64,000 bases of DNA from an uncultured Lachnospiraceae bacterium (GTDB lineage Bacteria > Bacillota > Clostridia > Christensenellales > UBA1242): NCBI GenBank assembly GCA_964541815.1, contig CAZIRI010000003.1, positions 156 through 64,155 on the forward strand, in the 5' to 3' direction. Below the pieces are notes generated by a model that was not told the DNA's origin, ran no database searches, and was given only the letters and a program-made list of their open reading frames with translations. Positions 14,222-50,000 of the stretch are shown in pieces. The position numbers and the translations under genes were made by a program. Within the stretch, counting starts at the first letter, position 1. Each line of letters starts with the position of its first letter.

Positions 14222-14228
14222 GTCGATT
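14203..14228. terminator. Bidirectional hairpin shared by the 3' ends of convergent genes
   Basis: aatcgacct (14203-14211) pairs with aggtcgatt (14220-14228): a perfect 9 bp with an 8-nt loop. The stop codons of cvpA (14219-14221) and the divIC-like gene (14210-14212) both lie inside it. Confidence 0.45.
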
Positions 14229-14428: not shown

Positions 14429-14741
14429 TGAGTTTATTGTAGCATATTTGTTTTATTTTTGTAAAGAAAAAATGCGTAATGAATTTTGATGTAAAAATTG
14501 AAATGGCAAAAATTGCGAATGTGTAGAATCTCATTTGTCCATAATTGATGAATAGATTTGTGATATAAAAACATATCAAGGTGAAAAATAAGGTGAAAAA
14601 GTCGAAAAAATATAAAAAAATCTTGATTTTTATACGCTTTTTGATTGTGTTTGCAATTTCAAACAAAAAACCGCATACAAATCCACAAAAAAGAAACCAT
14701 AAAACGATTGTGACTTGCGACAAAGTTTCAAACAAAATCAT
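14385..14741 (-). CDS. yabQ: Spore cortex biosynthesis protein YabQ-like
   Basis: 118 aa and very hydrophobic (IVLWFLFCGFVCGFLFEI...). It overlaps the yabP stop, matching the canonical yabP-yabQ arrangement. Confidence 0.6.
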   Translation of the reverse strand: MILFETLSQVTIVLWFLFCGFVCGFLFEIANTIKKRIKIKIFLYFFDFFTLFFTLICFYITNLFINYGQMRFYTFAIFAISIFTSKFITHFFFTKIKQICYNKLNGRRKKEKQVVEKV

Positions 14742-14992
14742 CTAAACAACCTTTTTATAAGGGACAATTTTTCTTCCTTTTTGCAAAATTTGATGTTTGC
14801 AATAGTCCCTGTAATGCAAACAGTTTTGTTTTCCAAATCAAGTTTTGTCACTTCAAGGTCATTTCCAAATATTGTCACCATGCCATGCTCCAAAGTGATT
14901 TGTGATTGTGTTTTTGTGGACGAATTCATTTTGATTGCCCCTTTTATAGTCAACATTTTTCTATCTTCAAGCAATAAACTTTCCATTTTCAC
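14738..14992 (-). CDS. yabP: Sporulation protein YabP
   Basis: 84 aa. LLLEDRKMLTIKGAIKMNS...ITLEHGMVTIFGNDLEVTKLDLENKTVCITGTI matches the YabP pattern (L-x-N-R-x-x-L-x-I-x-G...G-x-L-x-I-x-G-x-x-L-x-I-x-x-L-x-L-E). SD AAGGAG. Confidence 0.8.
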   Translation of the reverse strand: MKMESLLLEDRKMLTIKGAIKMNSSTKTQSQITLEHGMVTIFGNDLEVTKLDLENKTVCITGTIANIKFCKKEEKLSLIKRLFR

Positions 14993-15036
14993 TCCTTTTG
15001 CTTTGACAAATTCAAATTTTTATATATAATATTTAT

Positions 15037-16089: not shown

Positions 16090-16138
16090 ATCTTTGATAT
16101 TTATGAAATTATTTTTCATGATAAATAGGAGATTTTGT

Positions 16139-22100: not shown

Positions 22101-25100
22101 CAGTGGAAGCACCACAAGAATTCACAAACATTCTTGTTGGATTGAGTGAAGATGCGGTCATGACTGGCGAAGTTGCATCAATAAAAGTGAATTCCATTGG
22201 CTCATCAAAAACCGATGGCTATGCAATTTATGGACTTGCTTTGGGAGATGTGATTTCCGCATTCAAAACGGCGAATATTGATGTTCCAACTTCAAATGAC
22301 CCACAAACAATGTGGCTTTGGATTTACAAAGAATCGACTGAAAATGCAAGATATATTGTTTCGCCAAGTTTTGAGTCACAATTTATATATATGGAAAAGA
22401 CAAGCATAACATATCAAGGCACAGTGAAACTTGGAGATGAGAACACTGAAAAATTTGCGGACACCTATGTCAAGTTTGCTGGCGATAGCACTGCTCTTGG
22501 AATTTATGTGAGAATAACAACCTATGAGAAAGAGAACAATCCAATCACTGTTTTGAAATTCTGTGATAGTAAGAGCATGCTTGAAACAAGCAAAGATGTT
22601 TTTGGTGATGCCAATAATTTTGCAATCAATTTGACAGCGTTGTTTGAAAAAAAAGCTGGCGAGGGTGAAGTTTCTTTGAGAGATGTTGAAGGGGATCTTA
22701 CGATTGAATATGCAAAATTGACCTATTCGACAAGCAACAAGTTGTTTGGGCTTAATGAATGGCTTGGAACGGACGAAAATGGAAAAGAATTTGGATTTTA
22801 TAGACTTTCAAAACCAGGGAATGTCAAACTCTCGGGCGGAGATATTTCTTGGACTGACGGCAATCCAAAATCTTCAAGATATTATGTGTATTTTGCAACC
22901 CAATTGAATGAAGATCAAGACGATTTGGAAAGTGCTAGTCAATATTCATATGTATACACACAAAAAACGAGTTATTCAGCATCTGAATATGCTGGGATTG
23001 AACAAAAATATCATATTGCTGTTCAATCGATAAACAGTGACCCATTTGTGTTGTCATCTTCAAGAGTGTTTATTTCAAAGGATGACGCCATCACTGAAAT
23101 TTACAGAAATCAAGTGAGTGGCGGGTTGGAACTTGTTGGCGGAGCATTGAGATTCAAACTTGCAAACACTGAATTTGCGACAAATTTAGTAGCGTTGGCG
23201 GGTAAGGCTGAGAATGCTTCCGATTCAGATATTGAGGATTTTATGAATGAGACTTATCAAGCCCCTTTCACATTCAAGATTTCTGATTTGTTTGGCGACA
23301 ACATAAGTGTTCGATTGAAATTCACATCTCTTGATGTTGAAACGAACGGGAAATATCAAACATTTGATGTCAAAGCAAAATACTTGCTTCAAAATTTATT
23401 TGATGTGAATTCTGGTTTGGAAGGGAAGTTAAAAACCCTTGCAGACAAAACAAGCAAACTCAATTCGATAAGAGACTTCTTCTCAAGATCAACGGGCGGA
23501 ATTGCAACTCAACAACTTATTTGTGACGAAATTTTCAACTCATTGTCAATTGGGAATTATTCAATTCAATATCAAATTTTGGGTGGCACAAACACATTAA
23601 ATTCATATTGGTATGATTTCTGCAATATAGAAAATGGCAATAGAAACATCATTTATATAAACTCTCAACCTGACTATACAATAAGATGCGAAACTGATGC
23701 GAATGGCAACAATAAATACAGTGTGACATTCAAGAAAACTGATGTTGTGAGTGGTTATGAAAATGTTTACACACTCGTTGAAAATCCAGTCAGCGAAAAG
23801 ATAAAGGCATATTTTGAAAAAACATATGTTCAAACTTCTGACACGGGGATTGTGGACGGAAAAACTTACTACACAAAGACAACGGACAACGACAAAGATG
23901 TGTATACCGTTGTGGAAAGTCCAACAGTTGGCAATATTTCTACTTATTATGAAGAGGAATACACACTCACGACCGACACGGAGATTTCAAGCGAGAAAGA
24001 ATATTATGAATTGACTTCATGCACTCCAATAATGTCACCTGCAACAAGTTATGTGATGAAGTTGTATACATCAAGCGACAGTTATTACACATTTGATTTC
24101 AACGGAATTGATGTTTCTGGAAATGCGACTATGAAAATTGGCGCACAGACAATATATTCGAAAGATGTTGTGAACGAAGGAACTGTCACGGTTTATGATG
24201 CTGACAAAGACGGAAACACAACAGATAAGAGCGGAAATGCAATTGTCGGTGGTGGATATTACAAATTCTATTTGAATTGTGTTGATGATTCGCTTTTGGG
24301 AGTGTTTGGAGATTTGATAGAGAAGTATTCATACAAAATGCAAATTTATGCAGTTGGAACCGATTTCTCATTGTCTTCAAAATCACAATGCTTCAATGTC
24401 ACGTTCCTAGATTTCACAGGACTCTCACTTGAAAATGGTGTTTTGAGTTGGACTAGTGTTGGAACGACAAAAGTTTGGTGCAATTCTAGTTCCACAGATA
24501 AAGGAGGAACATCATCTTATATTGGAACGCTCACTGCAAAAGACGCAATAAATGGAAGACAAAATTTGCCAGTGAGCAAAATGGGTGCTGGCAAATATGA
24601 CAGCATTCAATTCCAAGAAATTGGTGGTGTTTATTCAGAATCTGTGGATGTTGATAGTGTTATTTATCAACTTGACAATGTCTACAAATATTCAGCACCA
24701 ACAGTCTCAACTGAATTGGGCTTGATAAAAATTGACAGCACTGCAAACGATATAGACAATATCTTCTCTCAATCTGGTGTTGATATGAGAATTATCACGA
24801 CTATACGAGAGAAAACAACCTCAAGTGAAGGTTCAGGCGAGGAAAAGGAAGGAGGTTCGGCGGAATTAATTGGAAATCTTGGAAAGATGAGGTCAAATGA
24901 TTCGATTATGTATAACGATGTTTCAACATCTTCTAGCAGACTTATCACACAATCAAAAACTTATGAAGTGGGTGGTTCTTCTGAATATGAAAGGACTGAA
25001 ATGACCGCAACTGAATTTAATGTCGCTACAGTTGGGTCAACGGTTGAGAAATTCGCAAGTGATACGAGTGGGAATTTGTTGATGAAATTGACTCCTATGA

Positions 25101-33512: not shown

Positions 33513-34642
33513 TGAAAGTTGGAAATATGAAAATAAAAAGTGTTTTATTGAGTGTTTGCCTTGGATTTTTTGTGATTTTGACATCATTCACTCTTGCAGG
33601 TTGCAGTGGAAAGATAAGCACATTGCAAAAGAGTGTTGACGCAATGAATGCAAAATATGAAAGTTTCAGCACAGTTTTCAAAAAAGAGACTGTGAAATCA
33701 TACGAGTGTGAATTGAGTGAAGTCTGGAAAATTTCCTACGGAAATGAGGTTGACGGATGGGTTGAAGATGGGAAAGAATATTTTTCAGAACTTGAAACTG
33801 ACTATAATGCAATGTTTGCGATTTCCGCAGAATATGTTGAAAAAAACATGGAATATGTTTTGAAAGCAAATCAAAAAGATTTGTCTTCAAAATCAAAAAA
33901 GATTCTTTCAGAATTGAATGACAGTGTGAAAGATTTCACAAAGGAAATGACATCTTTTTGCAAAGAAGTGAGAAAAGTTGATAATTATTTCAGCGTTTCA
34001 GGGCTTGACACATCAAACACTGCATATATTGCGGTGTTAAGTCAATTGAAAGAAGAATATGGTGATTTGATTGAAGACAACATGGAAATTTCTTCAAATT
34101 TGGCAAAAATGCTTGAAAGTATGGGTGTCTTTGACACATTAAAAGAGACTGCGACCACTGGGAATGGTGCAAATGTGAAAGTTTTGTATGATTATATCTA
34201 TGTCAAAAGTTTGCCAATTTTCCACGAACTTATGATTGACGGCTTTGAAGATGAATATTGGAATTCTTATGCAAAAGAAAATCCAAACGACCGCATTGCG
34301 ATGATACTTGACAGCGTCAAAGATTCATTTTCAACATACATTAAAAATTGTGTGAACGGCAGAAATAGTGTTGGCGATATGAATGCAGAAACGCTTGAAA
34401 CAGTCATCTCTATGACAAACGATTTCTTTGATGAAACAGAAAATTATTATATGGCAATTTCAGACTTTGATTTTTCAGAGTTCAAAGATAAAATTGTTGA
34501 AAAATTTGGAAAATACACTTTGCAAGATTACACATCTGAAAATGAATTTGCAGAAAGAGATATAACAAAAATTGAGCAATATGTGAATATAACATTGCCA
34601 AACTTTATCAACAAAACAACAAATTATTTCGAATTGAGTTAG
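33512..34642 (+). CDS. Hypothetical lipoprotein
   Basis: I chose the ATG at 33512 (MKVGNMKIKSVLLSVCLGFFVILTSFTLAGC, lipobox L-A-G-C) after GGAGGTG. It overlaps the upstream stop (TAATG). Confidence 0.6.
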   Translation: MKVGNMKIKSVLLSVCLGFFVILTSFTLAGCSGKISTLQKSVDAMNAKYESFSTVFKKETVKSYECELSEVWKISYGNEVDGWVEDGKEYFSELETDYNAMFAISAEYVEKNMEYVLKANQKDLSSKSKKILSELNDSVKDFTKEMTSFCKEVRKVDNYFSVSGLDTSNTAYIAVLSQLKEEYGDLIEDNMEISSNLAKMLESMGVFDTLKETATTGNGANVKVLYDYIYVKSLPIFHELMIDGFEDEYWNSYAKENPNDRIAMILDSVKDSFSTYIKNCVNGRNSVGDMNAETLETVISMTNDFFDETENYYMAISDFDFSEFKDKIVEKFGKYTLQDYTSENEFAERDITKIEQYVNITLPNFINKTTNYFELS

Positions 34643-34651
34643 GAGAATAAA

Positions 34652-36277
34652 ATGGATTATCAAAAATTGGCAGAAATGCTTTTTCCAGACAATAAATTGA
34701 CGGTGGAAGAAATTGAAAAAAAATATCCACCAAGAAAAGTTGATGCGTCCGCACAAGTGACAAGATATGCTCCAAGTCCAACGGGATTTATGCATTTGGG
34801 GAACTTTTTTCAAGCATTTATCTCTGCGACCGTGGCAAGGATGTCAAACGGAGTTTTCTATTTGCGAAATGAAGACACGGACAAAAAGAGAGAAGTTGAC
34901 GGCGCAGTCGCTGTGATTATGGGGATTTTGTTTGATTATGGAATTATGCCACAAGAATATGAACTTAAAGGTGGTGTGACCGTTGGCGAATATGGACCTT
35001 ATATTCAAAGTGAAAGAACGGAAATTTACAAAGCATATGCAAAAAAACTTGTGAGTGAAGGCAAAGCGTTCCCATGTTTTTGCGATAAAGCGAGCGGAAT
35101 TGAAGAAATAAAGGATGAAAGAGAGAAAAAATTTGCAGTTGGATTGTCAAATGATGAAAAAGATGATTGCAGAAATTTGACAATTGAGCAAATTGAAAAC
35201 TTTTTGAAAGAGGGGCGACCTTATGCTATAAGATTGAAATCGGAGGGGAGTTCAAAAAATAAAGTTGAATTTTTTGATGTGTTGAAAGGAAAAATTAGCA
35301 TGGAAGAAAATTCAAGAGATATTGTTATTTTGAAGAGCGACGGCTTGCCACCATATCACTTTGCACATCCAATTGATGACACTCTCATGGGGACAACCCT
35401 TGTTGTTCGTGGCGAAGAATGGTTGCCATCAACACCAATTCACCTTGAAATATTCAAAGCGTTGGGCTTCCAACCAATTATGTATCTTCACAATCCACTT
35501 GTTTGCATCAAAGAGGGTGAAACAAAGCGAAAATTGTCAAAGAGAAAGGACAAAGAAGCGGATATGCGTTTTTATGCAAAGGAAGGTTATCCAACGGATG
35601 CGATTTGTGAATATATTTTGAATTTGGTCAATTCGGGATTTGAAATGTGGAGAAAGAAAAATCCAAACTTGCCATACACAGAATATCGTTTTGAAGCGTT
35701 GAATGTGACAGCAAGTTCGCCAGTTTTGGATATGAACAAATTGAATGATATTTCAAAAGATGTCATTTCAAGAATGACGGCAGAGCAGTGCTATGAATCA
35801 ATGCTCACATGGGCGAAAAAAGAATGTGTTGAAAAAGTGGATTTTCTTGTTGAAAACAAAGAATATGTGACAAAAATTTTGAATATCGACAGAGAAAAGC
35901 CAAAGCCACGAAAAGATTTGTATAAGTGGAGCATGTTTTTCGATAATTTTGATTATATGTTTGATGGTGCTTCAACAAGCGAACTTGATAAATCGGAAAA
36001 AGATAAATATGAAGAAGTTTTGAATGAATATAAAAATTATCTTGATTTGTCTTCAAAAGAAATTTGGTTTGAAAAAATCAAAAAAATGAGCGAAAAACTA
36101 AAATATGCAACTGACAATGTGTCATACAAAAACAATCCAAACAATTTCAAAGGGAATGTTGCAAAGGTCTGTGAGTTTATAAGAATTGCGATAACTGGAA
36201 GAAAAAATTCCCCTGATTTGTTTGAAATTATGACCTTGCTTGGCGAAGATGAAGTATTGAAAAGAATTTCAAAATAA
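34652..36277 (+). CDS. gltX: Glutamate--tRNA ligase (class I, long form)
   Basis: 541 aa. HIGH region RYAPSPTGFMHLGN. KMSKS-like KLSKRKD. The overall motifs look GltX-like rather than GlnS-like. Confidence 0.75.
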   Translation: MDYQKLAEMLFPDNKLTVEEIEKKYPPRKVDASAQVTRYAPSPTGFMHLGNFFQAFISATVARMSNGVFYLRNEDTDKKREVDGAVAVIMGILFDYGIMPQEYELKGGVTVGEYGPYIQSERTEIYKAYAKKLVSEGKAFPCFCDKASGIEEIKDEREKKFAVGLSNDEKDDCRNLTIEQIENFLKEGRPYAIRLKSEGSSKNKVEFFDVLKGKISMEENSRDIVILKSDGLPPYHFAHPIDDTLMGTTLVVRGEEWLPSTPIHLEIFKALGFQPIMYLHNPLVCIKEGETKRKLSKRKDKEADMRFYAKEGYPTDAICEYILNLVNSGFEMWRKKNPNLPYTEYRFEALNVTASSPVLDMNKLNDISKDVISRMTAEQCYESMLTWAKKECVEKVDFLVENKEYVTKILNIDREKPKPRKDLYKWSMFFDNFDYMFDGASTSELDKSEKDKYEEVLNEYKNYLDLSSKEIWFEKIKKMSEKLKYATDNVSYKNNPNNFKGNVAKVCEFIRIAITGRKNSPDLFEIMTLLGEDEVLKRISK

Positions 36278-36386
36278 TTTGATTTTTGAAAAAATGCAAA
36301 AAAATATATAAAAAATCAAAAAAAACACTTAAAAATCCCTATTTTTCTGGTGAAAAAATATTTTAATAAAAAAATATAATAAAATT

Positions 36387-36424
36387 AAACTTCAAAATTA
36401 TTTCAATTTTTTGAAGTTTTTTAT
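36387..36424 (+). terminator. Intrinsic terminator of gltX
   Basis: aaacttcaaaa pairs with ttttgaagttt in a perfect stem of at least 10 bp, followed by TTTTATT. Confidence 0.7.
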
Positions 36425-36558
36425 TGCAATAAAATGATACTTTTTGCGATTTTTATTATGATTTATATTTTTTCCAAATGAAATAGAGTTAAAATGATTT
36501 CTCTGACAAGAATTTATGTGAGGGAAAATTATATTTGTGTGGAATTTTTGATATTTTA

Positions 36559-36587
36559 TTGACTTTTTTGTTTGTATGAATTATACT
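36559..36587 (+). promoter_or_regulatory. Promoter of the trpS leader
   Basis: TTGACT (36559-36564), a 17-nt spacer, TATACT (36582-36587). Confidence 0.55.
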
Positions 36588-36605
36588 AAAAATATGGAGG
36601 AAAAT

Positions 36606-36644
36606 ATGTTTAGTCCATTCAAGTCTTGGCGTTGGCAAATTTAG
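36606..36644 (+). CDS. Candidate Trp-rich leader peptide MFSPFKSWRWQI (an in-frame leaderless start at 36594 would give MEENMFSPFKSWRWQI)
   Basis: SD GGAGG (36596-36600) lies 5 nt before the ATG at 36606. TGG codons occur at 36627-36629 and 36633-36635. The stop is TAG at 36642-36644. It sits between a promoter and a terminator, directly upstream of trpS. Confidence 0.5.
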   Translation: MFSPFKSWRWQI

Positions 36645-36659
36645 TTGCTGGCAAAATTT

Positions 36660-36768
36660 ATGTTTTGCGAGTGTTTTTTGTTGCGGACAAAACATATTGA
36701 ATGAATTGAAAAATATTCCAAAAGGCTCGATTTGATATGTTTTGATTGTTAAATCGGGCTTTTTTATT
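36660..36768 (+). promoter_or_regulatory. Attenuator: mutually exclusive hairpins ending in an intrinsic terminator upstream of trpS
   Basis: Terminator: GCTCGATTT (36725-36733) pairs with AAATCGGGC (36751-36759), followed by TTTTTTATT. The segment caaaacatattga (36688-36700) can pair either with atgttttg (36660-36667) or with ttgatatgttttg (36732-36744). The second pairing overlaps the 5' arm of the terminator. Confidence 0.5.
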
Positions 36769-36788
36769 GAAAATTAAGGAGAATTATT

Positions 36789-37850
36789 ATGAAAAATATT
36801 ATTTTAACTGGCGACAGACCAACGGGGAATTTGCATATTGGGCATTATGTTGGCTCGCTTCTAAACCGTTTGAAATTGCAAGAGCAGGGGGATTTTGACA
36901 AGTTTTATATCATGATTGCTGATACGCAAGCGTTGACGGACAATGCGGATAGGGTTGACAAAGTCAAAAACAACATCATTCAACTTGCGATTGACTATTT
37001 GTCTGTGGGCATTGACCCCGAAAAAGTGAATATTTTCATTCAGTCGCAGGTGCCTGAACTTGCTGAAATGACGATGTATTTCATGAATCTTGTGACTGTT
37101 TCAAGATTGACACGAAATCCAACTGTGAAAGATGAGATAAAAAGCAAAAATTTTGCAAATTCCGTGCCAGTTGGGTTTATGTGCTATCCAATAAGTCAAG
37201 CGTCTGACATTTTGGCATTCAACACAACACTTGTCCCAGCGGGAGAAGACCAACTTCCAATGCTTGAACAAGCACGAGAAATTGTGCGAAGTTTCAATTC
37301 GACATATGATTGTGATGTTTTGACTTTGCCAAAAGCAATAGTTCCGGAAAATAAGTATCAAGCACGACTTGTTGGGATTGACGGAAATGCAAAAATGAGC
37401 AAATCTCTTGGAAATTGCATCTATTTGAAAGACGAACCCGAAGTGATAAAGCAAAAAATTATGAGTGCATACACTGACCCAAATCACATCAAAATTTCTG
37501 ACCCAGGAAATGTTGAGGGGAATGTTGTTTTTGAATATTTGAGCATTTTTGCGACTGATGAATATTTCAAAAAATACCTACCTGAATATAAAAATTTGGA
37601 AGAATTGAAATCTCATTATCAAAAAGGCGGGCTTGGTGATGTGAAAATCAAGTTGTTTTTGAATGATATATTGCAAGAAATTTTGGCACCAATTCGTGAA
37701 AAGAGAAAAATTTTGGAGCAAAATATTGACCAAATTTATGAAATGTTGTTTGAAAATTCAAAAAAAGCAAGGCTTGTTGCGGGTGAAACTGTGGCAAAAA
37801 TGAAAGATGCAATGGGCATCAATTATGAAAAATTATTAAATAAAAAATAA
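36789..37850 (+). CDS. trpS: Tryptophan--tRNA ligase
   Basis: 353 aa. TGDRPTGNLHIGHYVGSL (HIGH), KMSKSLGN (KMSKS), and IADTQALTDN, typical of this TrpRS subtype. Confidence 0.9.
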   Translation: MKNIILTGDRPTGNLHIGHYVGSLLNRLKLQEQGDFDKFYIMIADTQALTDNADRVDKVKNNIIQLAIDYLSVGIDPEKVNIFIQSQVPELAEMTMYFMNLVTVSRLTRNPTVKDEIKSKNFANSVPVGFMCYPISQASDILAFNTTLVPAGEDQLPMLEQAREIVRSFNSTYDCDVLTLPKAIVPENKYQARLVGIDGNAKMSKSLGNCIYLKDEPEVIKQKIMSAYTDPNHIKISDPGNVEGNVVFEYLSIFATDEYFKKYLPEYKNLEELKSHYQKGGLGDVKIKLFLNDILQEILAPIREKRKILEQNIDQIYEMLFENSKKARLVAGETVAKMKDAMGINYEKLLNKK

Positions 37851-38067
37851 AAATATCAAAAAAAATACACAAAAATTCAATTTTTTCGCAATTTTTGGGT
37901 ATTTTTTTATTGTTTTTTGAAAAATAAATATTTTTGTTTTTTATATTTTCAAATTATTTTAGTCTTCGTGTTTATAAGGGAAAGAAATATTTTGTCGTGT
38001 CCATTTTGCTTGATTATTTAGTGTATTTTGTGATAATATATATTATATAAATATAGGAGACGGACAA

Positions 38068-41000
38068 ATGAAAAGTAAGTCAATTTATACATGGATTGTT
38101 GCGGGAGTTTTTGCACTTGTTGGGGTGCTGGGATTTTTTTCTCTCCAATCAAACAAAACGGATGTTTTTGCTGAAGGTGAGAGTGAGCAAAGTTCTGTTG
38201 GTGTCAATTCGACTGAACGAGGCACTGTGGATGTTTGGGATGGGACATATTCTTTATCGGGGGTGTCTGCCGAGATGATTTATGACGGTAGTGCTGTAAA
38301 TAAAGATTATCATATTTACACTGCCACAGATTTTGCATATTTTTGTGCCATGGTCAATGGTGGGCTTGACAGTGGATATGCCGATTATTCGGGCAAGAAA
38401 ATTTATCTTGAAACAGATATTGACTTGAATGGAAATGAGTGGACACCTATTGGTTCTAATTTAGCTTTTTATGGTGAGTTCTATGGGCAAGGGCATTATA
38501 TATACAATCTGAAAGTGTCTTCCAACACATCTTCTTCGTATGGTTTGTTTGGATATGTTGGTGCTTCAGCTATTATTGACAATGTTCATTTGAGAAATGT
38601 TGATATAAATTGTTCAAAATCTAGCGACAACCTTTATGTTGGCGGGCTTGTTGGTTGCTTTCAAGGAGATATGATTTCAAATTGCTCAGTTTATGGAAAG
38701 ATTGCTTTTTCGACATCAACCACTTCTGGTGAGCCATCTATTGGTGGTCTTGTTGGAATATTTGAAGGCTCGAAATTGGAAAAATCCAAGACTTTTGTGG
38801 ATATGAATGTGAGTGGTGGCGGTGATTGTCGTGTTGGTGGGGTCGCTGGATATGTGAATCACGAATCTGTGCAACTTGGCCAGTTGTCTTCGAGGTCAAA
38901 CATCACTCTGAATTCGAAAGTGAACTGTGTTGGAGGAATTGTTGGATATTTTGATGCATCTAAAGACTCAAAATTGTCAAATTCATATAATGTCGGGGCT
39001 ATTTCGGGCTCTACAAATGTTTCAGAAATTTACATTGGTGGGCTTGTCGGATATGCAATAACAACAAATTCTGATAGCACATTGTCTATTGACCATGTTT
39101 ACAATGCGGGAGAACTTTCTGAGGACGGCAAAACTGGTGGGCTTATTGGACGTCAAAACGCCAACTTAAATATTTCGCAAGCGATGAATTTGACTGAAAT
39201 GTCAAAGGGTTGGTTGTTTGGTGAAGAGAGCAGTGACAAGTCTTGCAAAAAAAAGCAAGTGTATTACACCTACACACCAACTTTTGTGTATGGCGATCAT
39301 TTGACAGAATCTGGAAGTGTGACTAAGACTGCACAAATTTACAAAAATTCAGATTCTGGGGTTGCAAATCTGTCAACTCATGCAAGGCAAAAGAGTTTTT
39401 ATCAAAACGAAAACTTTTGGGATGTGTATAAAGAGAGTGTGACAAATGACAATGTTTGTGGTTCGACAATTTGGGGGCTTTCGTCAAGCATCAATGACAG
39501 TTTGCCATATTTGTTGAATGTTCAAAATGTTGGACTTGCAAACGCTGATACAAACATTTCTGGGGGTAGTAAACCTTTGGGGGTTGGGTCTTTTGAAAAG
39601 CCATATGCGATTGAGACGGCAGGCGATTTGGTTTGGATGTCTTTGAATTACTCCAATCCAGATTATTCAGGAAAATATTTTGCTTTGCAGAATGATATTG
39701 ACCTTTCAGGAAAGATATTTCGTTCAATCAATGGCTTTTCGGGTGTGTTTGATGGCAACGGATTCAAAATTTCGGGACTGACTTTCCCATTGGATGGCAC
39801 GACATCCACAAGTTTGTTTAGTTCGACATCAGATGCGGTCATCAAAAATTTGAAGGTCGAAAATGTGAGGTATTTGAGTGGGACGGGGACAGCAAGTCTT
39901 ATTGACTCGTCAAGTAATGCATACATTTATAATGTAGAAGGTGACAAGACAATCGCAATAACTAATAATTTGACGAATGATAATGTTGCAACAATCAACA
40001 CAAATGGTGGGATTATCTACAAGAGAACTTTTGATGGGAGTGGATACAGCGATTCAGTCATCCGTGGGGAGTTGAGATACACGACCAATTCAGCAGTTGC
40101 CAGTCTTGACCAAAGTTTTATTTGTGATACATTGAAAAAAACGAGTGACATTTCGGCTAATAATTTCAAATATTATGTCGTAAAAACAGGATATTGTGCT
40201 TCGGAAATATCAAACACAAAAGTCTCTTGGACTGCAAAAACAATTTCTGTCACTCTTCAATACAACAAGTATGAAATGGTGATGTATAAAGAAGCGGGAG
40301 ATAATAGTCCAACAGAAGATAAATCTGTGACAAAGGACATTCCTTATGATTCAGTTTTGGGACTTTACTGCTCGGATTGGTTTATGGATTGTGACAGAGA
40401 TGGTGGAAAATACTATGTTTGTGGCTTGTATAAAGATTTTGGTGCGGCTTCATCTTATGGTAAGTGTTTCACAAATCCGCTCACTTGCGACACTTTTGTG
40501 AATGATAATTTTGTTGATAAAACAAATGATACAACAAAAACAATTTATGCAAAATGGATGGCTGTTGGAGATCTTGCGGATGACCAATCATTCACATTCA
40601 CGGTCGTCATTCAAAAGGCGAGCGGTGAGAGTGGCAAATTTAACAATTTGGCAGGAAAAATCGAGAGTGTCACTTTGACTTCAAGTGATACAACAACAAA
40701 ATTCGAATATAAACCAACAGACGAAGATGCAAATGCTGAATCTTTGACCTGCACTTTCAAGATTTTCACAAGTTCATACAGTTTGTCCCGTGACAATTAT
40801 TGGACTTTGAATGTTGCCCTTACTGAAGATGGAACAAAAAATCTTGCCTCAACCGTATCTTTCGAAAAGGGGAAATTTGATGAATATTATGGCGGATTGC
40901 TTTTGGATTGTTATGGAAGTAATTTCCAAGGCTTGAATGAAGTTTCACTTAAAGAATTGGAAATTACACATATTCTCAATTTGAAGAATGATGAAAAAGT

Positions 41001-44000
41001 CAATATTGTTCTCAAAAAGAAAGAATATACGATGAATATCAATATCAGTGACAATGTGTATTTTGCTGTCGCCCCACAAATGATAAGTGACTATAAATCG
41101 AATGCGGGCGAAACTGAAAGTTCATCAAATCCTTCATACACATATCAATATTATGTCGCAACCATAGGCAAGGGACTTGGCAGTGGCAATCAACATGTTT
41201 TAATGGGTGATAAAACGGATAAAACGAAATTGAATATTGGGCTTGATGTGAGAAACAAAACTTTTGTCGACTATCAAGTGGGCAGTGGAAATGCTACTTT
41301 TGTGGAACTTCGTTCGGGATCCTTGGATTTATTGAGTGATTTTGGCACACAAGGTTTTGTAAATGATGGGGAATGTGTCATTTTGGAAGTTATTTACAAT
41401 AATATCTCTGAATATTTCCAATATTATTGTGAAATCACAAATAGCGACACCTATTATTATTTTGCAAGTGCCAAAATGGACGAGAATGAAAATATAGTGA
41501 CGGACAAGTTGATAGCAAAGTGGACTTTGTCGAAAAGTGGCGAGGATTGGGGTGGAACTTTGTCCTATTATGCATATTCACAATTTCAAGTCATTTGTGC
41601 TGTCAGCGCAGAGGATGCGGACGCAGACAATATCATTGGCGAAAAGAATGTGTGTGAAAATTTGTTTTCAAAATATTATGGGGTGAGTGAAGAGACATAT
41701 AAAAAAGTCGATGCTGAAAACACAGTTGGATACTTCAAACTCGGATACAATATAGATGATATAAGTTTTCAAAATGTCATAAAAGAAAAGGATGTTGTTG
41801 AATATGTGAAAGATAATTTTGAATTGAAAGCAATCACTGGATACACAAGCATTGTTTTCAATTACAAGATGATTGTTGAGGATGAAAATGGTGCTTTGAC
41901 ACTCAACGACAATAAATACAAAATCATCACTGATTATGCTCCAACAATTTCCGATGCAAGTAATGTGCTGGGCAAATTTAGTGTTGTTGCAGAGGGGGCG
42001 ACTGGCACGCTTGATTGGAATGTGACATCATCTTTGATGTATCAATTTGCGGATTCGGCTTTTGTTTTTGAGACGAATGTTTTTGTTCGGGATGCAGATG
42101 GGAATGAAGTGACGGGACCTTTTTCAGTGGATAATGACGGTCCTAAATATAGTTCGAGTTTGGATAATGGCTCATATGATGTGTATTTCTTGTGCGTGAA
42201 GACGGAATACAAGGTCTCTGGAGATGTGATTTTCATTCAAAGAACAAATAAGTCAACAAGCGTCGACCTGTTGGATGAAAGTAATCGTGTTGACCTCATC
42301 AAGAGCGGTGCACAGAATTTGCCAACAATCACAATCAATGGCACGTTGACATCAAAGGATAGTGGCAACACTTATAATTATGGATACTATGACTCAACAC
42401 TCTCTGCGACAACAACTATGGAAGGGAATCAAGCATTTGTTTTCAATGGATGGTATGTTGTTGGGTGTGATGAAAATGGAGATGAAGAGGGGAAATATCT
42501 ATCAGGTTTTGGCATCTATTTGGCAAATAATTCTGAGTGGGAAAATATAGATTTGGGGGATTTTTATTATCTTAAAGCGGATGAGAATACTCGAAAAGTT
42601 GTGGTAAGTCCTGAATTTAAAATTTATGCAGTCTACATTTTGAAAGAAGTGACTTTTGATTTTGAGAGAAGTGGTGCAACATTGACGACCACCAATGACA
42701 GCAGTCTATATGTCTACAAATCATCAAAGGCATATCAATTTTCACTGACAGCCAACAGCGATGCAAAATATATCGCTGGATACACATTGAAAAATGGCAC
42801 AAGCGAAATCGCAACAATCAGTTTTGATTGGAATGTTAAAGACGGAAATTCTTATAGGGCAAGTTATGGAACGGGCAGTTCAGTGATTACAAATTTTGGA
42901 ACATTTGTAGGGTTTGAAGACGGCAACAAACTTGCAGAAAAATTTATCATAAATTATATTGACGAATATTTGGAGAAAACAAGCGGGCTGGGTGAGAACA
43001 CGACGCTCACAATTTGTCCTATCGTGAAAAATAAAAAATTGAATATAACTTTCACTTCGGGTGGAGACAAAACTGAGGTGTTAGGCGATGTTTTTGACAA
43101 TAATGGGAATAACACAACTGCCAGTTCATTTGAGCAAACAAGTGAAATTGACGAAGAAGTTTCATTTGTGGGCAAATATAATGAAAAAGATACTAATTAT
43201 GACGACATTTTTTATAAAAGAACTGGTTATAAAAAAGCGTCAATAAGTTGGAATTGGAGTTGGAAAACATCATCGGGAGAAGCATCAACTCCTGGCAACA
43301 ATTTGTATCTCAATGGAAATAAATGGACGGTCACATCTATACCTTTTGCAAATTCAAAAGATGATGAACTTTTGATTGAGATTGAAGTTTATGTCGTTTG
43401 GGAAGCGGAAACTTATGGAATTTCTCTAAAGCAAGACGATGTAAGCGCAAGAGGAACTACATATGTCACGGTCACATATGACAGTGGTTTGAATGGGAAA
43501 ATCACTGCTCCACAAAAAACGGGCTACACTTTTGGTGGCTGGATGACAACAGAAAGTGGATATGTTGAGACAACGGATGAAAACGGCAAAAAAATACAAA
43601 CCGAAGCACCTTGCGTCATTGACGAAAATGGAAATTTGATAGCGGGTGTTGCTGGCTACACAAATGACAAGGCATATTGGATACATGCAAATGCAGTCAC
43701 TTTATATGCGAAATGGACGGCAAATTCATATAATATCACAGTGAATTTGAATAATTCTGTCGAGGAAAGTTCGGTGGCAATCACAACAAGCATTGTTTAT
43801 GACCAAGCATTTTCAACAATGACAATAAGTGATGAGGAATTTGAAAAATTGGGCGTGACAAAAACTGGTGAATTCGATATTTTCACTTATTTGACAAAGA
43901 CGCTTTCTCGGGTTGGCTTCACAAACAAGGGATTGTTGACGGAGAAAGGTAGGAAAATAACAAGTGATATGACATTCAAGATTTCAATGGGCGAAATAAA

Positions 44001-47000
44001 TCTTGACGAACCCTCAGCACTCAACTTGTATGTGAAATGGGAGTTTGACAAAACTGCTTTTGCATTATCGTTCACAAATCCAGAAGTGAAAACAACTTAT
44101 AATGGCAAGGAGCAAACTTTTGGCTTGGGAAATTTTGCGAGCGGAGAGGGTTCTTATGAAGCGACAGGATTTGTTATTAATGGCAATTTCACAATCTCTT
44201 TGGGAGATAGGGTGGACATCTCTTTGGCTGTCAAACTTTCAACAGAGTCAACAGCGGTATTAAATCAAGACGATGTGACAATGAAAGTCACAAATACAGG
44301 AACCTATGAGTTTTCATTGCAATTGACAATCACGGATAATGCGAAGTATAGGTGTGAAGATTTGACTTGTGAGCCGATAAATTTGACAATTACAGTCAGT
44401 CCAGCAGAACTCAATTGGAAGTTTAATGACAGCACAAAAGAATCGATGTGGGTGAACAATATTTGCTCACTTGCGGAGCATTTTGTGTCGGGTAATTTGA
44501 CTGGATGTGAAAGCATTTCTGCTCTTGTGGGTGAACTTGGCGAAGAAATCACAGTGACGAATGACAATAAGGAGAGTGTTTACAATTATCTTCTTGTGAA
44601 ATATTATAATATTGCAACGAATTACAATAATGTTGAGTATAAAAGTTGGACCTATTCAAATTTTTCCGCTGAAAATTACACTAAATTGATTGCTCAAATG
44701 CAATTCTTTGATTTTTACGACCTAAGCGAGAAAAGTTCGACAAAAACTTTGGATTTGGGGGAATATCTTGTTGTGTCAAATGAAAGTATAAATGAAACAG
44801 TTGGCATAACAAGGGTTGAAATTGTCTCAAATGGCACATTCACGGCACAAAACGAATATGAATTGCGAGCGATTTTGAACAAGAGCAGTGCAAGCAATTT
44901 TGTTGTAGAAGAAGACGCAAATAAGAATTTATATATTGTGATTGGAAAACTTTATATGATGCCTCAATTTGTCAAATTGTCAATTGGGACAAAACTTTCA
45001 GCGTTCTACAATGAAAATATTCACACGGTTGACTGGAAAAGCGGAGACTCCTACGGCAATGGCGGGGAATATTATCTTGCAAGCAACGGAATTTATGTAA
45101 GTGCGACAATCACGACATCAAATAGTGGAAGTGAAGAAAATGACACAAAATTCACTTTTGTTGACGGGGTTAATTATCTTAAATTGTCAAATGTTGATGT
45201 GATCACTGAAAACGGATTGCGTGTCAATAAGTCAGTTGTGATTTACATTGCTCCAAGTGATTTTTACACGATTTTGCAAGTGAATTTCAAGAGGATTTAT
45301 TTGTCAGCACAATATCTCACAAAGACGGATGAAACATACACGACATCAAGATTTGGTGAAGATGTGGTTTCCAATTTGTTTAGTTTGAGTGTGACATACA
45401 CTGCGGGCGGTGAAAATGAATACACGGAAACAGATGTCATTTACAACGAGTGGAAAACTGTGACTTCTGAAGACGAGACATATGACATTCGTTTGTATAG
45501 AATTGAAGCGGACGGAACAAACGGATTTGTGATTTATATTTCCGACTATGTGAAATCAGTTCAAGTGAAAATTTCAGAGACACAGTTAGCTGACTATTTG
45601 GCACTAAAAAATTGGTATTTAGGAAAAAATGAAATAAAATATCAATCATTTTCAATTGGCGGAGCGATGTCAACAGAAGATGAATACACAATAACAAACA
45701 GTAAACTAGTCACAACACCAATAAACAAGATTGAGACGGCATATTGTTATGCAATATACACTGATTTGACTTGTGTGAAATATAAAACAGGTTTTGAAAC
45801 TGGTGAACATAAAGACGAATACACAACTTTTGTAATGAAACTCAAATCTTCAACAAAAGATGATTTTGACAAGCATCTTCCATCTCAAAATGGCTTTGTT
45901 TTGGACAAAACCACTGTTCAGGAGAATGGAAAAGAATATTCAAGTCTTTTTGATGAAAATGGTGTGTTTGATGGTGTCGCTGGAAGTCGTTTCTCAATCA
46001 CATTGAGGTTCTCTTGGTCGATTGGAAAAATAGCTTATGAGCAGACAAAGAAAGCAATTTCAATCGAGCCAAACAACACTGCACAAAAAATTTCTCCAAG
46101 TGATATTGTGTCGATAGCTAGTTCGCAATTTGCTTTCACATACAAATGGAAATTGCTTGATGACAATAACGAGGCGAAAGCAGTAGGCACAAACGGGACT
46201 TTGACAGAGGATGAGAAAAAGATTTCTGGGGTCTTGACAGTTGACAAGAGTGGAAATTTGATAGTCAAGGAGTGCGGAAAATACACATTGACCGTGACGG
46301 CAGTTTTGAGTGAGGCGGATGCAAAAAAATATTCAATCACTTTGACAACAGGCAAAGAACAATCATTCACGGTTGATTTTGAAGTTTTGAAACTTAAAAT
46401 TGCAAGTGTCAAATTTGAAAATATGGAAAGCGTCATATACAGTGGCAGTGACCACAGCAGTGGGCTTTATGCAACAGTTGGGATATATTATGCAAGTGCG
46501 GACGGTGGTTATAGTGCCAGCACAAAAACAAAAGAGTTTTATTACACTGCAAACAAAGAGAGCAAGAATCTTGCTGAAAAATTTTATATAACAAAAAATG
46601 AGGAATCATTTGTTCAAATTGTCGATGCGGGGACATATAATTTTGAGTTGACTTTTGACGAAAATTACTACATTGTTGAAAATGATGTGGTGACAACGAC
46701 AACTTTTGTTGTGCAAGAAAAAGAAATTGACTTGTCAAAATATACAAAATCTTTTGAGAAAGTGTTCAACAGCAATGATACCGAAATGAAAGGCAGTATT
46801 TTGGTTGGCAACATGACGGTTGGCTTGTTCTACACGAGAGAAAGCGGAGAAGATGTTGGGACTTATAAACTCTATTTGAAAGACAGTGAGACTTACAAAT
46901 CAAACTACAAATTCACAAGCGGAGATATTGTGTTGTTCACTGGTGGAGAATTGCAAACACTGGGCAACGAAACCTCAATCGGAACATTCACAATCAAACC

Positions 47001-50000
47001 AAGCGGAACATTGAAAATTTCATACAACATAACTTCGGATTTTCCTGCGACAATCAAAAAAGAGTATGATGGCAAAAATTACTCTGTCAATGTGAATTCA
47101 GATTTGCAAATGAAAATTCAGAGTGGAAGCGATGTTTATAAGACAATCGAACTTGTGCTTTATGATGACAACTCAAAGAAAACTATTGGGCAGAGCAAAA
47201 ATGATGCGAGTGACAGCGAAAAAGAGCAGACAAAAGAAGTGCTTGCATTGATTAAAAGTGTTTTTGGCAATTTATCAATGAGGTTTGCTGACAGAAGTCA
47301 AGGATATGCCAATGGGGTTTGCGATGTTGGAACATATAATTATTCTTTTGCAAACACGGCGATCTCAAAATATTATCAAAATGTTGTTTTTAGTGACGGA
47401 TATCAATTTGAAATCATAAAACAAAACATAAACTTCTCAACAGAAAAGTTGGACAAAGTTTATGATGGCGAAAATGTTTCATATTTCAAAACTGACGGCA
47501 CTTTGATTGGAAATTCTTTGGGTGAATATACTGGTGCTTATGTAAGGGCGGAATATTCGTCCTCACATGCGGGAGAAGTTTCTGTCACATTGACACTGGC
47601 AAAAAATGTTGATGAGGTTGACATTGAAAATTATCAACTTGCAAGCACGACTGTTGATGCGACAATCTCAAAACTTGCAGTGTCTTTGCAAATCGAATTG
47701 ACAAAAACATCATATGTCTATGGTGAAGTGACTTCTGGGGATTATGAACAACTTGTGAAAGCAACGACATTGAACAGTGGGTCAGGCACAAGTGTCAACA
47801 ATTTGCTTGGAAGCGGATATTATGAATATGTATATGATGTGACAATGACGAACGGGAGCGAAGTTAAAACAAACGGAAGCAGGCGTTTGTATGTTGGAAA
47901 TTACACATTTTCTGCAAAAAATTCAACTTTTTCTGATTTTGATGTGACATTCCAAGACAAAACTTTTGAAATCACGCCATACAATTATTCACTCTATGTG
48001 ACAAATGCGACTTTCACAAATCTTGCAACGGAAGCGGTCGCAGAAGAACTTAAATATTCTATGACAGTTGACAGCACGGGCGATTCGCTTGACATCTTGT
48101 TTAAGGCTGTTGATGGTGAAGAAAATGATGTTCGTGGCAAAACAGTTGGAGCGGGGAATTATAAACTTGTCTTATTGCAAACGGAATATGCGAACGGGAA
48201 TGTCAACGTTTCGCTTTCAAACAAAGACAACACGGGTCTTGTGATCGCTTCAACAAATCTGCTCTACATTTCAATTGACGGATTGAGTGTTGACTATGAC
48301 GGGCAAACGCATACTTTGGCATTGAATTCAGACAATGCTCTTTGTTTAGACAACACACCTTTGACAATTTCATACACAAACGACAAAAATGAAAGTGTTG
48401 ATGACGCTGATGTGGTCTTTACATTTGCTGGACTTACACAAACAAATGCGGGTTCTTACAATTTTTCAATGCAAATCACATCTGACGTATACACAAACAT
48501 TGTTCTTAAATCAAAGACATTCACAATAAACAAAAAAAGTGTCGATGCAAGTCAATTCACGACAAATTTGACAAAAGAGTATGACGGAAAAAGCACTTTA
48601 ACTTTTGATACATTCAGTGAAAAAATTGGAAATGACGATGTGTTGGTTGTTGCAAAATTTTCAAATTCGACAGTTGGCAGTGACAAAACTGTTGAATTGT
48701 CTTTGCAAGGAACAGCGAGCGGGAATTATGTTCTTTCTTCAAAGACATGCACGGGGACAATCACAAAAGCAAGTGCGATTGTCACATTGAAAAAGACAAA
48801 GTATATATATGGCGAAATTTCCGAGGGGCGAACGCTGGCATATTCCGTCATGGCAAACAATGTGGAAATTGGAAGTGGACAATACAAATTGATGCTTGCA
48901 ATTACGAGCGGACAATACAGCGGTGCAAAATATTTGAAAGTTGGCACTTATGGCATAAGTATGACAGCCACCTCAACAAATTATAAACTCGCTTTGGCGG
49001 ACAATTCAACGGAAATTGAGGTTTCTCCATATGCTTTGACAATCAACTTTACAACATCTGGACTTATTGAAGTGTTTTATGCAAGCGAAGAATCAAAAAG
49101 TCAAACATTTGCATATACATACACAACCGCCTTTGGAGAAAATATCGCTTTGACTTTGGGAAGAGATATGGTGGACAGAGTTCTTCCTGTGAGTGCGGGA
49201 TATTACAGAGTGACAAGTTGTGCAATTTCAGGTGAAAGTGATTACACGATTTCGTCATTCACTGATTCAAGTGTTTCGGGAGCATTCAAAATCAAAGCGG
49301 AAGACAAAATGATTTATTTGCTTGCTTCAAGTGAAGATTCTTTGACGACAATTTCTTCAACATTAAACATGACTTATGACGGAAAATCATACACATCAGC
49401 AAGTCTTGTGGCAAATGGCAATTCTTTCAAATTGTCAATTTTCACAGAGGAGAATGAAGAACATTCTTGGACACTAAATGCATATTTGCTTGACGGCGGA
49501 GTGTATAAAAAACAAACAATCACATTTGAGAATTTTGAATCAAATTTGACATTGAGTGGTGCTGTTCGAGATGTTGCGAATCAAAGAACAATCACAAGCG
49601 ATTATATTTTGGCGAGCAACTATTCAGCAATCACATTTGGGACAACCAATCAAATGATTGTTTCAGTGGGAAAGAAAGATGTATACTTTGTGAGCGATAA
49701 TATAACTAAAAAATTTGACTATAAAGAAGCAATCATAAGTCTTGACTCAACTGCATTGGAAGGAATTTGCGACGGGGACAATGTTTCAGTGACAGTCACA
49801 TTGAAAAATTCGAGTGGCATTGCAATTCATCGAGCGGTGGGTCTTTCAGTGACAGCGGAGTTGATTGGCGACAGCGAGAACTACACCTTGCATTGCACAA
49901 AAAGCAATGGAGATAAAGTTTCGGGCGAAATCACCCCTGCGGAAATCACTGTGACAATTCCGTCAATAACTGTGGAATATGGAAAACTTAAACTTGAAAG

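Follow-up and report, generated by a model that had tools for sequence, protein, structure and literature searches.

On the evidence described below, we lean modestly towards reading the leader of trpS as a young, lineage-specific attenuator, in which a ribosome translating a short ORF with two Trp codons would raise trpS expression when charged tRNA-Trp runs short. No part of such a device is missing, and they follow one another as they should: a promoter, a mini-ORF with its own Shine-Dalgarno (SD) sequence, a set of alternative helices, an intrinsic terminator and trpS itself (Table 1). An earlier sequence-only reading had proposed ribosome-mediated attenuation at this site from the promoter TTGACT-17-TATACT and from a 12-codon ORF with GGAGG 5 nt before its ATG and two Trp codons one codon apart; both are there as described. 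Below, the window means the whole 64-kb stretch of DNA that was analysed.

Table 1. Features of the gltX-trpS region, in window coordinates
Feature	Coordinates	Strand	Details
gltX and terminator-like hairpin	34652-36422	+	gltX 34652-36277; A+U-rich hairpin 36387-36419, then U tract
Sigma-70-type promoter	36559-36587	+	-35 TTGACT 36559-64; 17-nt spacer; -10 TATACT 36582-87
SD of mini-ORF	36596-36600	+	GGAGG; 5 nt from ATG at 36606
Leader mini-ORF	36606-36644	+	MFSPFKSWRWQI; 12 codons; TGG 36627-29 and 36633-35; stop TAG 36642-44
Segment 1, 5′ strand of anti-antiterminator helix 1:2	36609-36638	+	inside mini-ORF; pairs with 36681-36710
Hairpin H1	36647-36679	+	36647-49, 36651-57 / 36662-68, 36670-72, then U6 36674-79; tip of helix 1:2
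Segment 2	36681-36710	+	pairs with segment 1 in free leader; core 36688-36702 is antiterminator 5′ strand
Antiterminator, helix 2:3	36688-36744	+	36688-36702 / 36730-36744; 15 bp including 2 G-U
Intrinsic terminator, helix 3:4	36720-36768	+	stem 36720-37/36747-64; G+C core 36724-29/36755-60; 9-nt loop; tail UUUUUUAUU
trpS	36776-37850	+	SD AAGGAG 36776-81; CDS 36789-37850; 353 aa; tryptophan--tRNA ligase

The regulated gene is identified by NCBIfam TIGR00233 (248 bits; cutoff 176.75), and gene identification across the window found no other gene with Trp as its substrate. As read directly in the sequence, GGAG at 36778-81 precedes the trpS start, an ATG at 36789. The gene upstream is gltX (TIGR00464, 295 bits; cutoff 290), and trpS is the syntenic, gltX-linked copy, which makes it apparently the housekeeping one. 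The hairpin that follows gltX (36387-36419; -8.8 kcal/mol, z -3.8) and its U tract are predicted to set the gltX and trpS transcription units apart in the source species. The leader promoter agrees with the consensus at 10 of 12 positions and is among the two best matches in a promoter scan of 34000-39000; transcription probably starts near 36594. An in-frame ATG lies at 36594, 7 nt past the -10 TATACT, and the mini-ORF ATG sits 19 nt past the -10, near the predicted transcription start and with its own ribosome-binding site. Between the terminator and trpS, the same scan gave no acceptable promoter; inspection by eye picked out TTGATT-17-TATTGA as the best sequence there, which we rejected as it does not have the invariant final T. 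Since the only good promoter precedes the terminator and none good follows it, trpS needs read-through. The leader has a G+C content of 32.6%, against 17.1% in the remainder of the gltX-trpS intergenic region. A 68-aa ORF on the minus strand (36489-36695) was set aside because it is not preceded by an SD sequence.

Trp occupies residues 8 and 10 of the mini-ORF, that is 2 of its 12 residues, as compared with 0.67% Trp in the proteins encoded in the window; two codons is the minimum for the class of leader-peptide attenuators. When the 511-nt intergenic region was shuffled with its dinucleotide composition retained, an SD-preceded ATG mini-ORF with a W..W pattern appeared in 6 of 5000 shuffles. 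Real sequence, sampled over about 0.95 Mb, has such mini-ORFs at 0.0095 per kb, and the 64-kb window contains one, that of the trpS leader. The ten contigs of the species differ at one position in the transcript: most strains carry C36615T, which changes the peptide to MFSSFKSWRWQI (P4S) and at the same time closes a bulge in helix 1:2 (-58.3 versus -53.8 kcal/mol), making that helix stronger by 4.5 kcal/mol.

Both the minimum free energy (MFE) structure and the centroid of the free leader contain helix 1:2 (-32.8 kcal/mol, z -3.08). The 5′ strand of this helix is the mini-ORF itself, so the logic of attenuation holds better than it had originally been described. At the tip of the helix, H1 was scored as terminator-like in the terminator scan (-11.2 kcal/mol, z -3.97, equalled in none of 200 shuffles), and together with its U6 run it may serve as a transcription pause site or a weak first terminator. 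The segment at 36688-36700 had been noted as able to pair either upstream or with the 5′ arm of the terminator, and we recover both pairings, the first as 9 bp between 36659-67 and 36688-96 and the second as the 15-bp antiterminator. The antiterminator (about -11 to -12 kcal/mol) is A+U-rich and shares 8 nt with the 5′ arm of the terminator; taken alone it is unexceptional, with a z of -0.99 and a comparable helix in 657 of 1000 shuffles. The terminator has 18 pairs when those between its A tract and U tract are counted and is far stronger than expected by composition (-19.7 kcal/mol, z -5.78, none of 200 shuffles as good). The 9-bp stem (36725-33/36751-59) and U tract of the sequence-only reading are real, although they form only the core of this longer hairpin.

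To model the switch we folded the growing transcript stepwise, by MFE and ensemble calculations with the ribosome represented as a mask. In the free leader, helix 1:2 dominates (probability 0.67-0.98 in the ensemble, and 0 with the ribosome masked), the antiterminator is absent and the terminator forms. With the mask extended to 36642 or 36648, helix 1:2 is lost and, at transcript end 36746, all 15 antiterminator pairs are made; over transcript ends 36746-52 the probability of the antiterminator is 0.90-0.92 with the ORF masked and at most 0.21 without. Ribosome positions are distinguished when the transcript reaches 36756, where that probability is 0.90 for a ribosome at the first Trp codon, 0.19 at the second, 0.01 at the stop codon and 0.00 for free RNA. 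A ribosome at the stop codon still allows the antiterminator at ends 36746-52, and the terminator is favoured again by 36756; this is also the one ribosome position at which H1 does not fold. The expected effect of a ribosome footprint over the Trp codons, a switch of the predicted fold to the antiterminator, is thus borne out in the calculations, and within this model mask folding yields the three classical attenuator states. A full switch, with the antiterminator absent in the free leader and present with a stalled ribosome, was obtained in 2 of 1000 shuffles of the spacer. Once the 3′ arm of the terminator is complete, the terminator wins at equilibrium in every ribosome state, so the attenuator model would have to work through kinetics; the energy gaps between the leader states, at a few kcal/mol, are inside the error of the energy model.

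From these results we infer the following scheme. RNA synthesis would begin at about 36594, and a ribosome would load at the GGAGG and ATG and translate its 12 codons. With no ribosome on the ORF, either because it was never translated or because the ribosome has finished and gone, helix 1:2 would form with H1 at its tip and sequester segment 2; the 36720-64 hairpin could then fold, and RNA polymerase would stop on reaching the U tract, about 25 nt short of trpS. When tryptophan is short, a ribosome stalled at codon 8 or 10 would cover segment 1. H1 can still form in this state, possibly holding the polymerase for a while, and 36688-36702 would be left free. As 36730-44 emerges it would pair with this free strand and take away the 5′ arm of the terminator, and the polymerase would read on into trpS.

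The absence of a T-box, which the sequence-only reading had reported from inspection, stands up to systematic search. No Rfam family matched the window at its gathering threshold, the T-box model RF00230 gave no match even at E<=10 in 36280-36900, and nowhere in the 64 kb does the T-box core GGGTGGTACCGCG occur, even with up to 3 mismatches allowed. A divergent T-box riboswitch sensing uncharged tRNA-Trp would have precedent on its side, as T-boxes are the usual control of aminoacyl-tRNA synthetase genes in Firmicutes (PMC1262725, PMC2965389), and the leader does contain UGG triplets. However, besides these negative searches, the predicted antiterminator is a continuous helix with no UGGN bulge, a leader of about 170 nt is too short to accommodate a normal-sized Stem I along with its other helices, and the trpS genes of relatives are also without a T-box; we regard this reading as scarcely credible. 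The proposal that the attenuator stands in place of a T-box fared badly as well: neither a T-box nor any other relevant known RNA element was found in the loci of 40 relatives, each taken with up to 3 kb upstream. In the closest relatives (82% TrpS identity) gltX and trpS are separated by 44 nt with no leader. Because these relatives have neither leader nor T-box, the leader was added rather than exchanged for a T-box, and it appears from this comparison to be an addition to a formerly leaderless gltX-trpS pair.

The terminator could also be made conditional by something other than a ribosome, such as an RNA-binding protein (TRAP-like, or TrpRS itself), a small RNA or a non-canonical contact with tRNA-Trp, with the mini-ORF being incidental. 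The terminator and antiterminator alternatives do exist independently of translation, and the leader carries three UGGC motifs (36627, 36633 and 36649) that may pair with a 3′ GCCA end, if a G discriminator is assumed, or whose UGG may pair with the anticodon of tRNA-Trp, CCA. In TRAP-regulated leaders, of the Bacillus trp/trpG/trpP type, a long and dense array of (G/U)AG repeats must overlap the antiterminator; a TRAP-type leader was rejected here, as 36594-36765 holds only four GAG/UAG triplets, irregularly spaced. RNA-binding proteins often regulate themselves through attenuators (discussed in PMC2965389). Against control of this kind, neither a T-box nor any other Rfam family was detected, and such control would make mere coincidences of the ideally spaced, strong SD and of the way the ORF overlaps segment 1; we judge it improbable.

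The leader is confined to one species, in which an exact-protein look-up returned the 10 near-identical contigs; the contigs come from ERZ27279215-28, ERZ27245998 and SRR11880821/27/30. It is missing from 67 genome loci, from 30 metagenome loci and from the four closest TrpS relatives (80-82% identity), and in all about 100 relatives have neither the mini-ORF and hairpins nor a T-box at trpS. Searches of the 67 genome loci with blastn and nhmmer gave low-complexity matches only, and a scan of 62 + 29 loci found no W-rich mini-ORF upstream of trpS within the clade; a few matches in distant loci were discarded, since they either had no SD or were G+C-rich stretches with many TGG codons that are probably coding. 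The W-x-W mini-ORF, which the sequence-only reading had suggested looking for in related genomes, is thus found, like the hairpins, in the source species only. Nor is there a second copy of the intergenic sequence in the window, as an origin from a repeat or mobile element might have left. Given the limitation to one species, the comparison yields neither covariation nor any sign that the Trp codons are under selection. In the loci compared, then, the regulatory codons and helices are not conserved in orthologous leaders; conservation is customary support for an attenuator and lies outside the definition of the mechanism. What became of the attenuation proposal is therefore divided: its anatomy and logic hold in silico, beyond what was first described, and comparative support for it is absent.

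This distribution bears on two further readings. One is that the promoter-to-terminator unit, whose layout is complete, is an independent small gene for a micropeptide or small RNA and that trpS is expressed by incidental read-through. We think this very improbable: the peptide varies inside the species (P4S), a degenerate DNA pattern for it had no match in JGI metagenome contigs, and leader-like DNA turned up neither in the loci of relatives nor elsewhere in the window. It would moreover leave trpS with no good promoter past the terminator, and a structured spacer of 75 nt with mutually exclusive helices would have no role. The other, which we consider unlikely while giving it real weight, is that the leader senses nothing: an expanded spacer would have gained a promoter-like site, a mini-ORF and a hairpin by chance, with leaky termination lowering or insulating a constitutive trpS. 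The gltX-trpS spacer is indeed A+T-rich, and its length differs widely among relatives (44 to more than 400 nt); this reading accords with a leader seen in one species with no sign of selection and with an antiterminator that is unremarkable against shuffles. On the other side, the elements are improbable jointly (6 of 5000 for the ORF, z -5.8 for the terminator, z -3.1 for helix 1:2 and 2 of 1000 for the switch), the leader has twice the G+C of the surrounding spacer, and a strong unregulated terminator right before an apparently housekeeping trpS would be costly. Hairpins upstream of trpS are also rare and milder in relatives: terminator-like ones occur in 4 of about 43 close relatives (-8.1 to -14.2 kcal/mol), the three that were inspected have short A+U-rich stems, and none of the four is accompanied by a promoter and mini-ORF arranged as in the source species.

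If the leader is an attenuator, its logic and four-segment layout are those of E. coli trpL (Rfam RF00513), in which helices 1:2, 2:3 and 3:4 are mutually exclusive. There too a short ORF with two nearby Trp codons lies in segment 1, the terminator has a G+C core followed by a U tract, and the helix energies are of similar size (about -12 kcal/mol for 2:3 and -20 kcal/mol for 3:4 in the trpS leader). Unlike trpL, the trpS leader belongs to a low-G+C Clostridia organism and is predicted to regulate a synthetase rather than a biosynthetic operon, an Arg codon lies between its two Trp codons, and it has the extra H1 and U6 at the tip of helix 1:2. Its stop codon lies 37 nt upstream of segment 2, so that a ribosome at the stop leaves segment 2 unmasked. 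The two share no sequence or model homology: membership in the Trp_leader family was rejected at 14.0 bits against a gathering threshold of 41 (E=7), with only the terminator aligned. By these comparisons the trpS leader would be an analogue of the proteobacterial trpL family and not a member of it.

Streptomyces trpRS1/trpS2 likewise has a leader-peptide attenuator before a tryptophanyl-tRNA synthetase gene, answering a shortage of charged tRNA-Trp, and its attenuator, which has been predicted (PMC1262725), is reportedly the subject of an experimental paper by Vecchione and Sello from 2010, cited in PMC4787780. In that high-G+C actinomycete the gene is an auxiliary, indolmycin-resistant paralogue, whereas the Clostridia leader precedes the syntenic, apparently housekeeping trpS, and the two leaders are unrelated in sequence. 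A synthetase operon under ribosome-mediated attenuation is also found in E. coli pheM-pheST (mentioned in PMC1262725), where the leader peptide is again rich in the cognate amino acid; the host there is a proteobacterium, the codons are for Phe and the sequence is unrelated.

Within the Firmicutes, S. aureus ilvD (ilv-leu) has a Leu-rich attenuator peptide where B. subtilis has a T-box (PMC5794164), and His leader peptides have been predicted before hisS paralogues and hisZ in bacilli (PMC2965389). In both, leader-peptide attenuation is found at genes that other Firmicutes control by T-boxes; by analogy, these cases show that the mechanism works in the phylum. They differ from the trpS leader in amino acid and target gene and in being conserved across a genus, rather than restricted to a single species. 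A T-box would have the same purpose as we propose for the trpS leader, induction of an aminoacyl-tRNA synthetase on uncharged tRNA, and the same terminator/antiterminator output. The sensor differs, with no Stem I or specifier and no T-box bulge in the trpS leader.

A bolder reading, which we offer tentatively and judge somewhat less likely than not, is that the leader is a functional attenuator born recently and de novo from an expanding A+T-rich spacer, and that it is the first case in Firmicutes of leader-peptide control of a housekeeping trpS. The aminoacyl-tRNA synthetase genes of the phylum are generally expected to rely on T-boxes, and a 2005 survey knew of none with classical attenuation (PMC1262725). 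A functional trpS leader would add an aminoacyl-tRNA synthetase gene of Clostridia to those under classical leader-peptide attenuation. For annotation it carries a warning, as Rfam and comparative genomics, being based on conservation, are blind to lineage-specific attenuators. It would also indicate that a complete attenuator can arise as one species diverges from leaderless relatives, and would support the idea, raised in PMC2965389, that random sequence gives rise to leader peptides again and again. If this is true, the trpS leader would be a very young natural case of a ribosome-sensing regulatory RNA coming into being.

The trpS at 36789-37850 is a bona fide gene for tryptophanyl-tRNA synthetase and, judged by synteny, appears to be the housekeeping copy. 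The elements that an earlier sequence-only reading had listed upstream of it (promoter, Shine-Dalgarno sequence, mini-ORF and in-frame ATG) were all found at the coordinates it gave. The promoter ranks among the top two promoter-like sites in a scan of 34000-39000, and no acceptable promoter was found between the 36720-64 hairpin and trpS, so any trpS transcript must pass the terminator. That terminator ends ~25 nt 5′ of the trpS start and is stronger than had been claimed (-19.7 kcal/mol, z -5.78, equalled by 0 of 200 shuffles): the 9-bp stem described earlier exists, but it is only the core of the full hairpin. The local hairpin H1, together with the UUUUUU that follows it (36647-36679), resembles an additional, weaker terminator, or else a pause site, 5′ of the main one. 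The leader is also compositionally distinct, with 32.6% G+C vs 17.1% in the rest of the gltX-trpS spacer. An ATG ORF of 68 aa on the minus strand (36489-36695), antisense to promoter and leader and lacking a Shine-Dalgarno sequence, is probably spurious.

Features of the gltX-trpS region
Feature	Position	Strand	Details
gltX	34652-36277	+	5′ neighbour of the trpS leader
Weak A+U-rich terminator-like hairpin of gltX	36387-36419	+	Hairpin analysis
Promoter	-35 36559-64; -10 36582-87	+	TTGACT, 17-nt spacer, TATACT; read from sequence
In-frame ATG	36594	+	Read from sequence
Shine-Dalgarno	36596-600	+	GGAGG, 5 nt 5′ of ATG 36606
Mini-ORF	36606-36644	+	MFSPFKSWRWQI, then stop; 12 codons; TGG at 36627 and 36633
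H1	36647-72	+	-11.2 kcal/mol, z -3.97; U6 directly 3′ at 36674-79
Intrinsic terminator hairpin	36720-37/36747-64	+	18 pairs, 9-nt loop, then UUUUUUAUU
trpS	36789-37850	+	TIGR00233, 248 bits vs cutoff 176.75

As the sequence-only reading had proposed, the leader is predicted to adopt mutually exclusive folds, according to where the ribosome is. The ribosome-free leader (36594-36719) forms one long hairpin (-32.8 kcal/mol, z -3.08, equalled by 1 of 200 shuffles) in which parts of the mini-ORF (36609-14, 36616-22 and 36631-38) pair with 36681-36710 and H1 sits at the tip. Within that 3′ partner, 36688-36702 can form 15 bp with 36730-36744, a segment that takes in the loop-proximal half of the terminator's 5′ arm and part of the terminator loop. 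The arrangement has the four segments of E. coli trpL, with the ORF as segment 1, 36681-36710 as 2, 36730-44 as 3 and 36747-64 as 4; pairing 2:3 is the antiterminator.

We folded the growing transcript stepwise with the ribosome footprint masked and calculated ensemble probabilities (P). With no ribosome, 1:2 was kept however long the transcript (P 0.67-0.98). The antiterminator never exceeded P 0.21 in this state, and the terminator formed as soon as its 3′ arm emerged. When the mask extends to 36642 or 36648, as for a ribosome stalled on Trp codon 8 or 10, H1 folds and the antiterminator reaches P 0.90-0.92 at transcript ends 36746-52. Masking to 36657, as for a ribosome on the stop codon, blocks H1; at transcript end 36712, 36659-67 is then paired to 36688-96 with P 0.89, and this is the upstream pairing that the sequence-only reading had pointed out. 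By transcript end 36756, antiterminator P is 0.90 for codon 8, 0.19 for codon 10, 0.01 for the stop codon and 0.00 for the free leader. As in known attenuators, the complete terminator is favoured at equilibrium in every state, and the choice between termination and read-through must therefore be kinetic; the predicted energy gaps between ribosome states are only a few kcal/mol.

The best-supported reading of these models, to which we give somewhat better than even credence, is ribosome-mediated attenuation that would induce trpS when charged tRNA-Trp is limiting; the interpretation given by the sequence-only reading is thereby partly supported, in its attenuator logic, and the function is predicted. 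For this scheme we infer the transcription start, translation of the mini-ORF, the footprint sizes and the physiological response. By analogy with trpL, where the 1:2 hairpin is the pause hairpin, a pause at H1 and its U6 tract may synchronise polymerase and ribosome. Unlike in E. coli trpL, the stop codon lies 37 nt 5′ of segment 2, so termination under Trp sufficiency would need either ribosome release and refolding of 1:2 or the 36659-67/36688-96 pairing, which is weaker than the 1:2 alternative. TrpS itself contains no tryptophan (0 of 353 residues), as is true of all 120 of its closest homologues, so Trp shortage itself cannot limit synthesis of the enzyme; Trp makes up 0.67% of residues encoded in the window.

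When the 511-nt gltX-trpS spacer was dinucleotide-shuffled 5000 times, an ATG ORF of 5-30 codons preceded by a Shine-Dalgarno sequence and carrying two Trp within three positions arose in 6 shuffles. Both strands of the window and of 67 loci, together 0.95 Mb of real sequence, contain nine such ORFs; the mini-ORF is the sole example in the window. That the terminator is conditional under some other factor, with this ORF incidental, seems to us distinctly unlikely. When the ORF and terminator were held fixed and the 75-nt spacer shuffled (n=1000), a stalled-state antiterminator was common (657), and the full switch, with the antiterminator absent when free and present when stalled, appeared twice.

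TrpS groups the organism with uncultured gut Clostridia bearing Candidatus Caccovivens, Clostridiales or Christensenella-like MAG labels, with a best identity of 79% in species-representative genomes; in a collection of 5.8 billion proteins, there is a gap in identity from 100% to 82%. Relatives at 80-82% have a gltX-trpS spacing of 44-45 nt, or else an A+T-rich spacer of 226 nt that contains no ORF. No leader-like sequence was found in 67 genome loci or 30 metagenome loci, no W-rich mini-ORF precedes trpS within the clade in either set, and no relative's locus has a comparable promoter, mini-ORF and terminator arrangement before trpS. The W-x-W mini-ORF, whose conservation the sequence-only reading had proposed checking, is absent from related genomes, and only same-species copies were found. 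This total lack of conservation is the main argument for a leader that arose by chance, senses nothing and has a leaky terminator; however, the parts are jointly improbable, and an unregulated -19.7 kcal/mol terminator would be costly before a trpS that synteny marks as apparently housekeeping. We regard such a leader as a serious alternative, though an unlikely one. The gltX-trpS pair is syntenic across the clade (window 36278-36788 vs L001-L032 and L078-L091, relatives' loci). Its spacer is extremely A+T-rich (17% G+C in the window) and ranges from 44 nt to >400 nt among relatives, implying rapid expansion and turnover of this intergenic region. In L083 (940-1000) and L084, a small A+U-rich hairpin and U run (AAATTGAATTCGAACTCAATTTTT) inside the 44-nt spacer may partly terminate transcription between gltX and trpS.

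Among ten same-species contigs the leader is almost unchanged, with only two differences in the transcript region: a 2-nt insertion just 5′ of ATG 36594, which places it at the inferred 5′ end or ahead of it, and C36615T, present in 7 of the 10. The latter changes Pro4 of the peptide to Ser and closes the only bulge in helix 1:2 with a base pair, so that the stem runs uninterrupted for 14 bp (MFE -58.3 vs -53.8 kcal/mol without it). Such a pattern would be expected of a leader in which the RNA helix is important but the peptide sequence is not, as judged from a single event; that the mini-ORF is an independent micro-gene we consider very improbable.

The window also holds two giant plus-strand ORFs, at 16094-28096 (4000 aa) and 38068-56178 (6036 aa). 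The second lies directly 3′ of trpS, has a hydrophobic start and ends in a hydrophobic segment followed by KKRKK; the only matches on record are faint ones to Flg_new/Flg_new_2 repeats, and the length varies from 6036 to 6042 aa among strains.

Over the whole window, tRNA-Ala was the single Rfam match; as anticipated, no T-box was listed at E<=10 in 36280-36900, and the T-box core motif was not found in all 64 kb with up to three mismatches allowed. We give a divergent T-box almost no credence. The only thematically related match in 36280-36900 at E<=10 was the proteobacterial Trp_leader (14 bits, gathering score 41, E=7), for which we rejected homology: the alignment rests on the terminator. 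Two stretches, 2202-2992 (791 nt) and 14222-15036 (815 nt), have neither an ORF of at least 150 aa nor an Rfam match. The earlier proposal that the leader stands in place of a T-box did not survive comparison: a scan of 40 loci from relatives, taken with as much as 3 kb of upstream sequence, found no T-box, so the ancestral state is a leaderless gltX-trpS pair rather than a T-box, and the closest relatives have no leader.

In function the closest known system is E. coli trpL. In the gene that is regulated, the Streptomyces trpS2/trpRS1 attenuator comes closest; PMC1262725 predicted it, and an experimental paper on it is cited in PMC4787780. According to PMC1262725, no Firmicutes aminoacyl-tRNA synthetase gene was known to use classical attenuation; His leader peptides were later predicted 5′ of hisS paralogues in bacilli (PMC2965389), and a Leu-rich attenuator peptide was demonstrated 5′ of ilvD in S. 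aureus, at a position that a T-box occupies in B. subtilis (PMC5794164). The leader-peptide mechanism is already known and has precedent in the phylum. The trpS leader, apparently very young, would if true be non-homologous to known attenuators and represent a new combination of gene and phylum.
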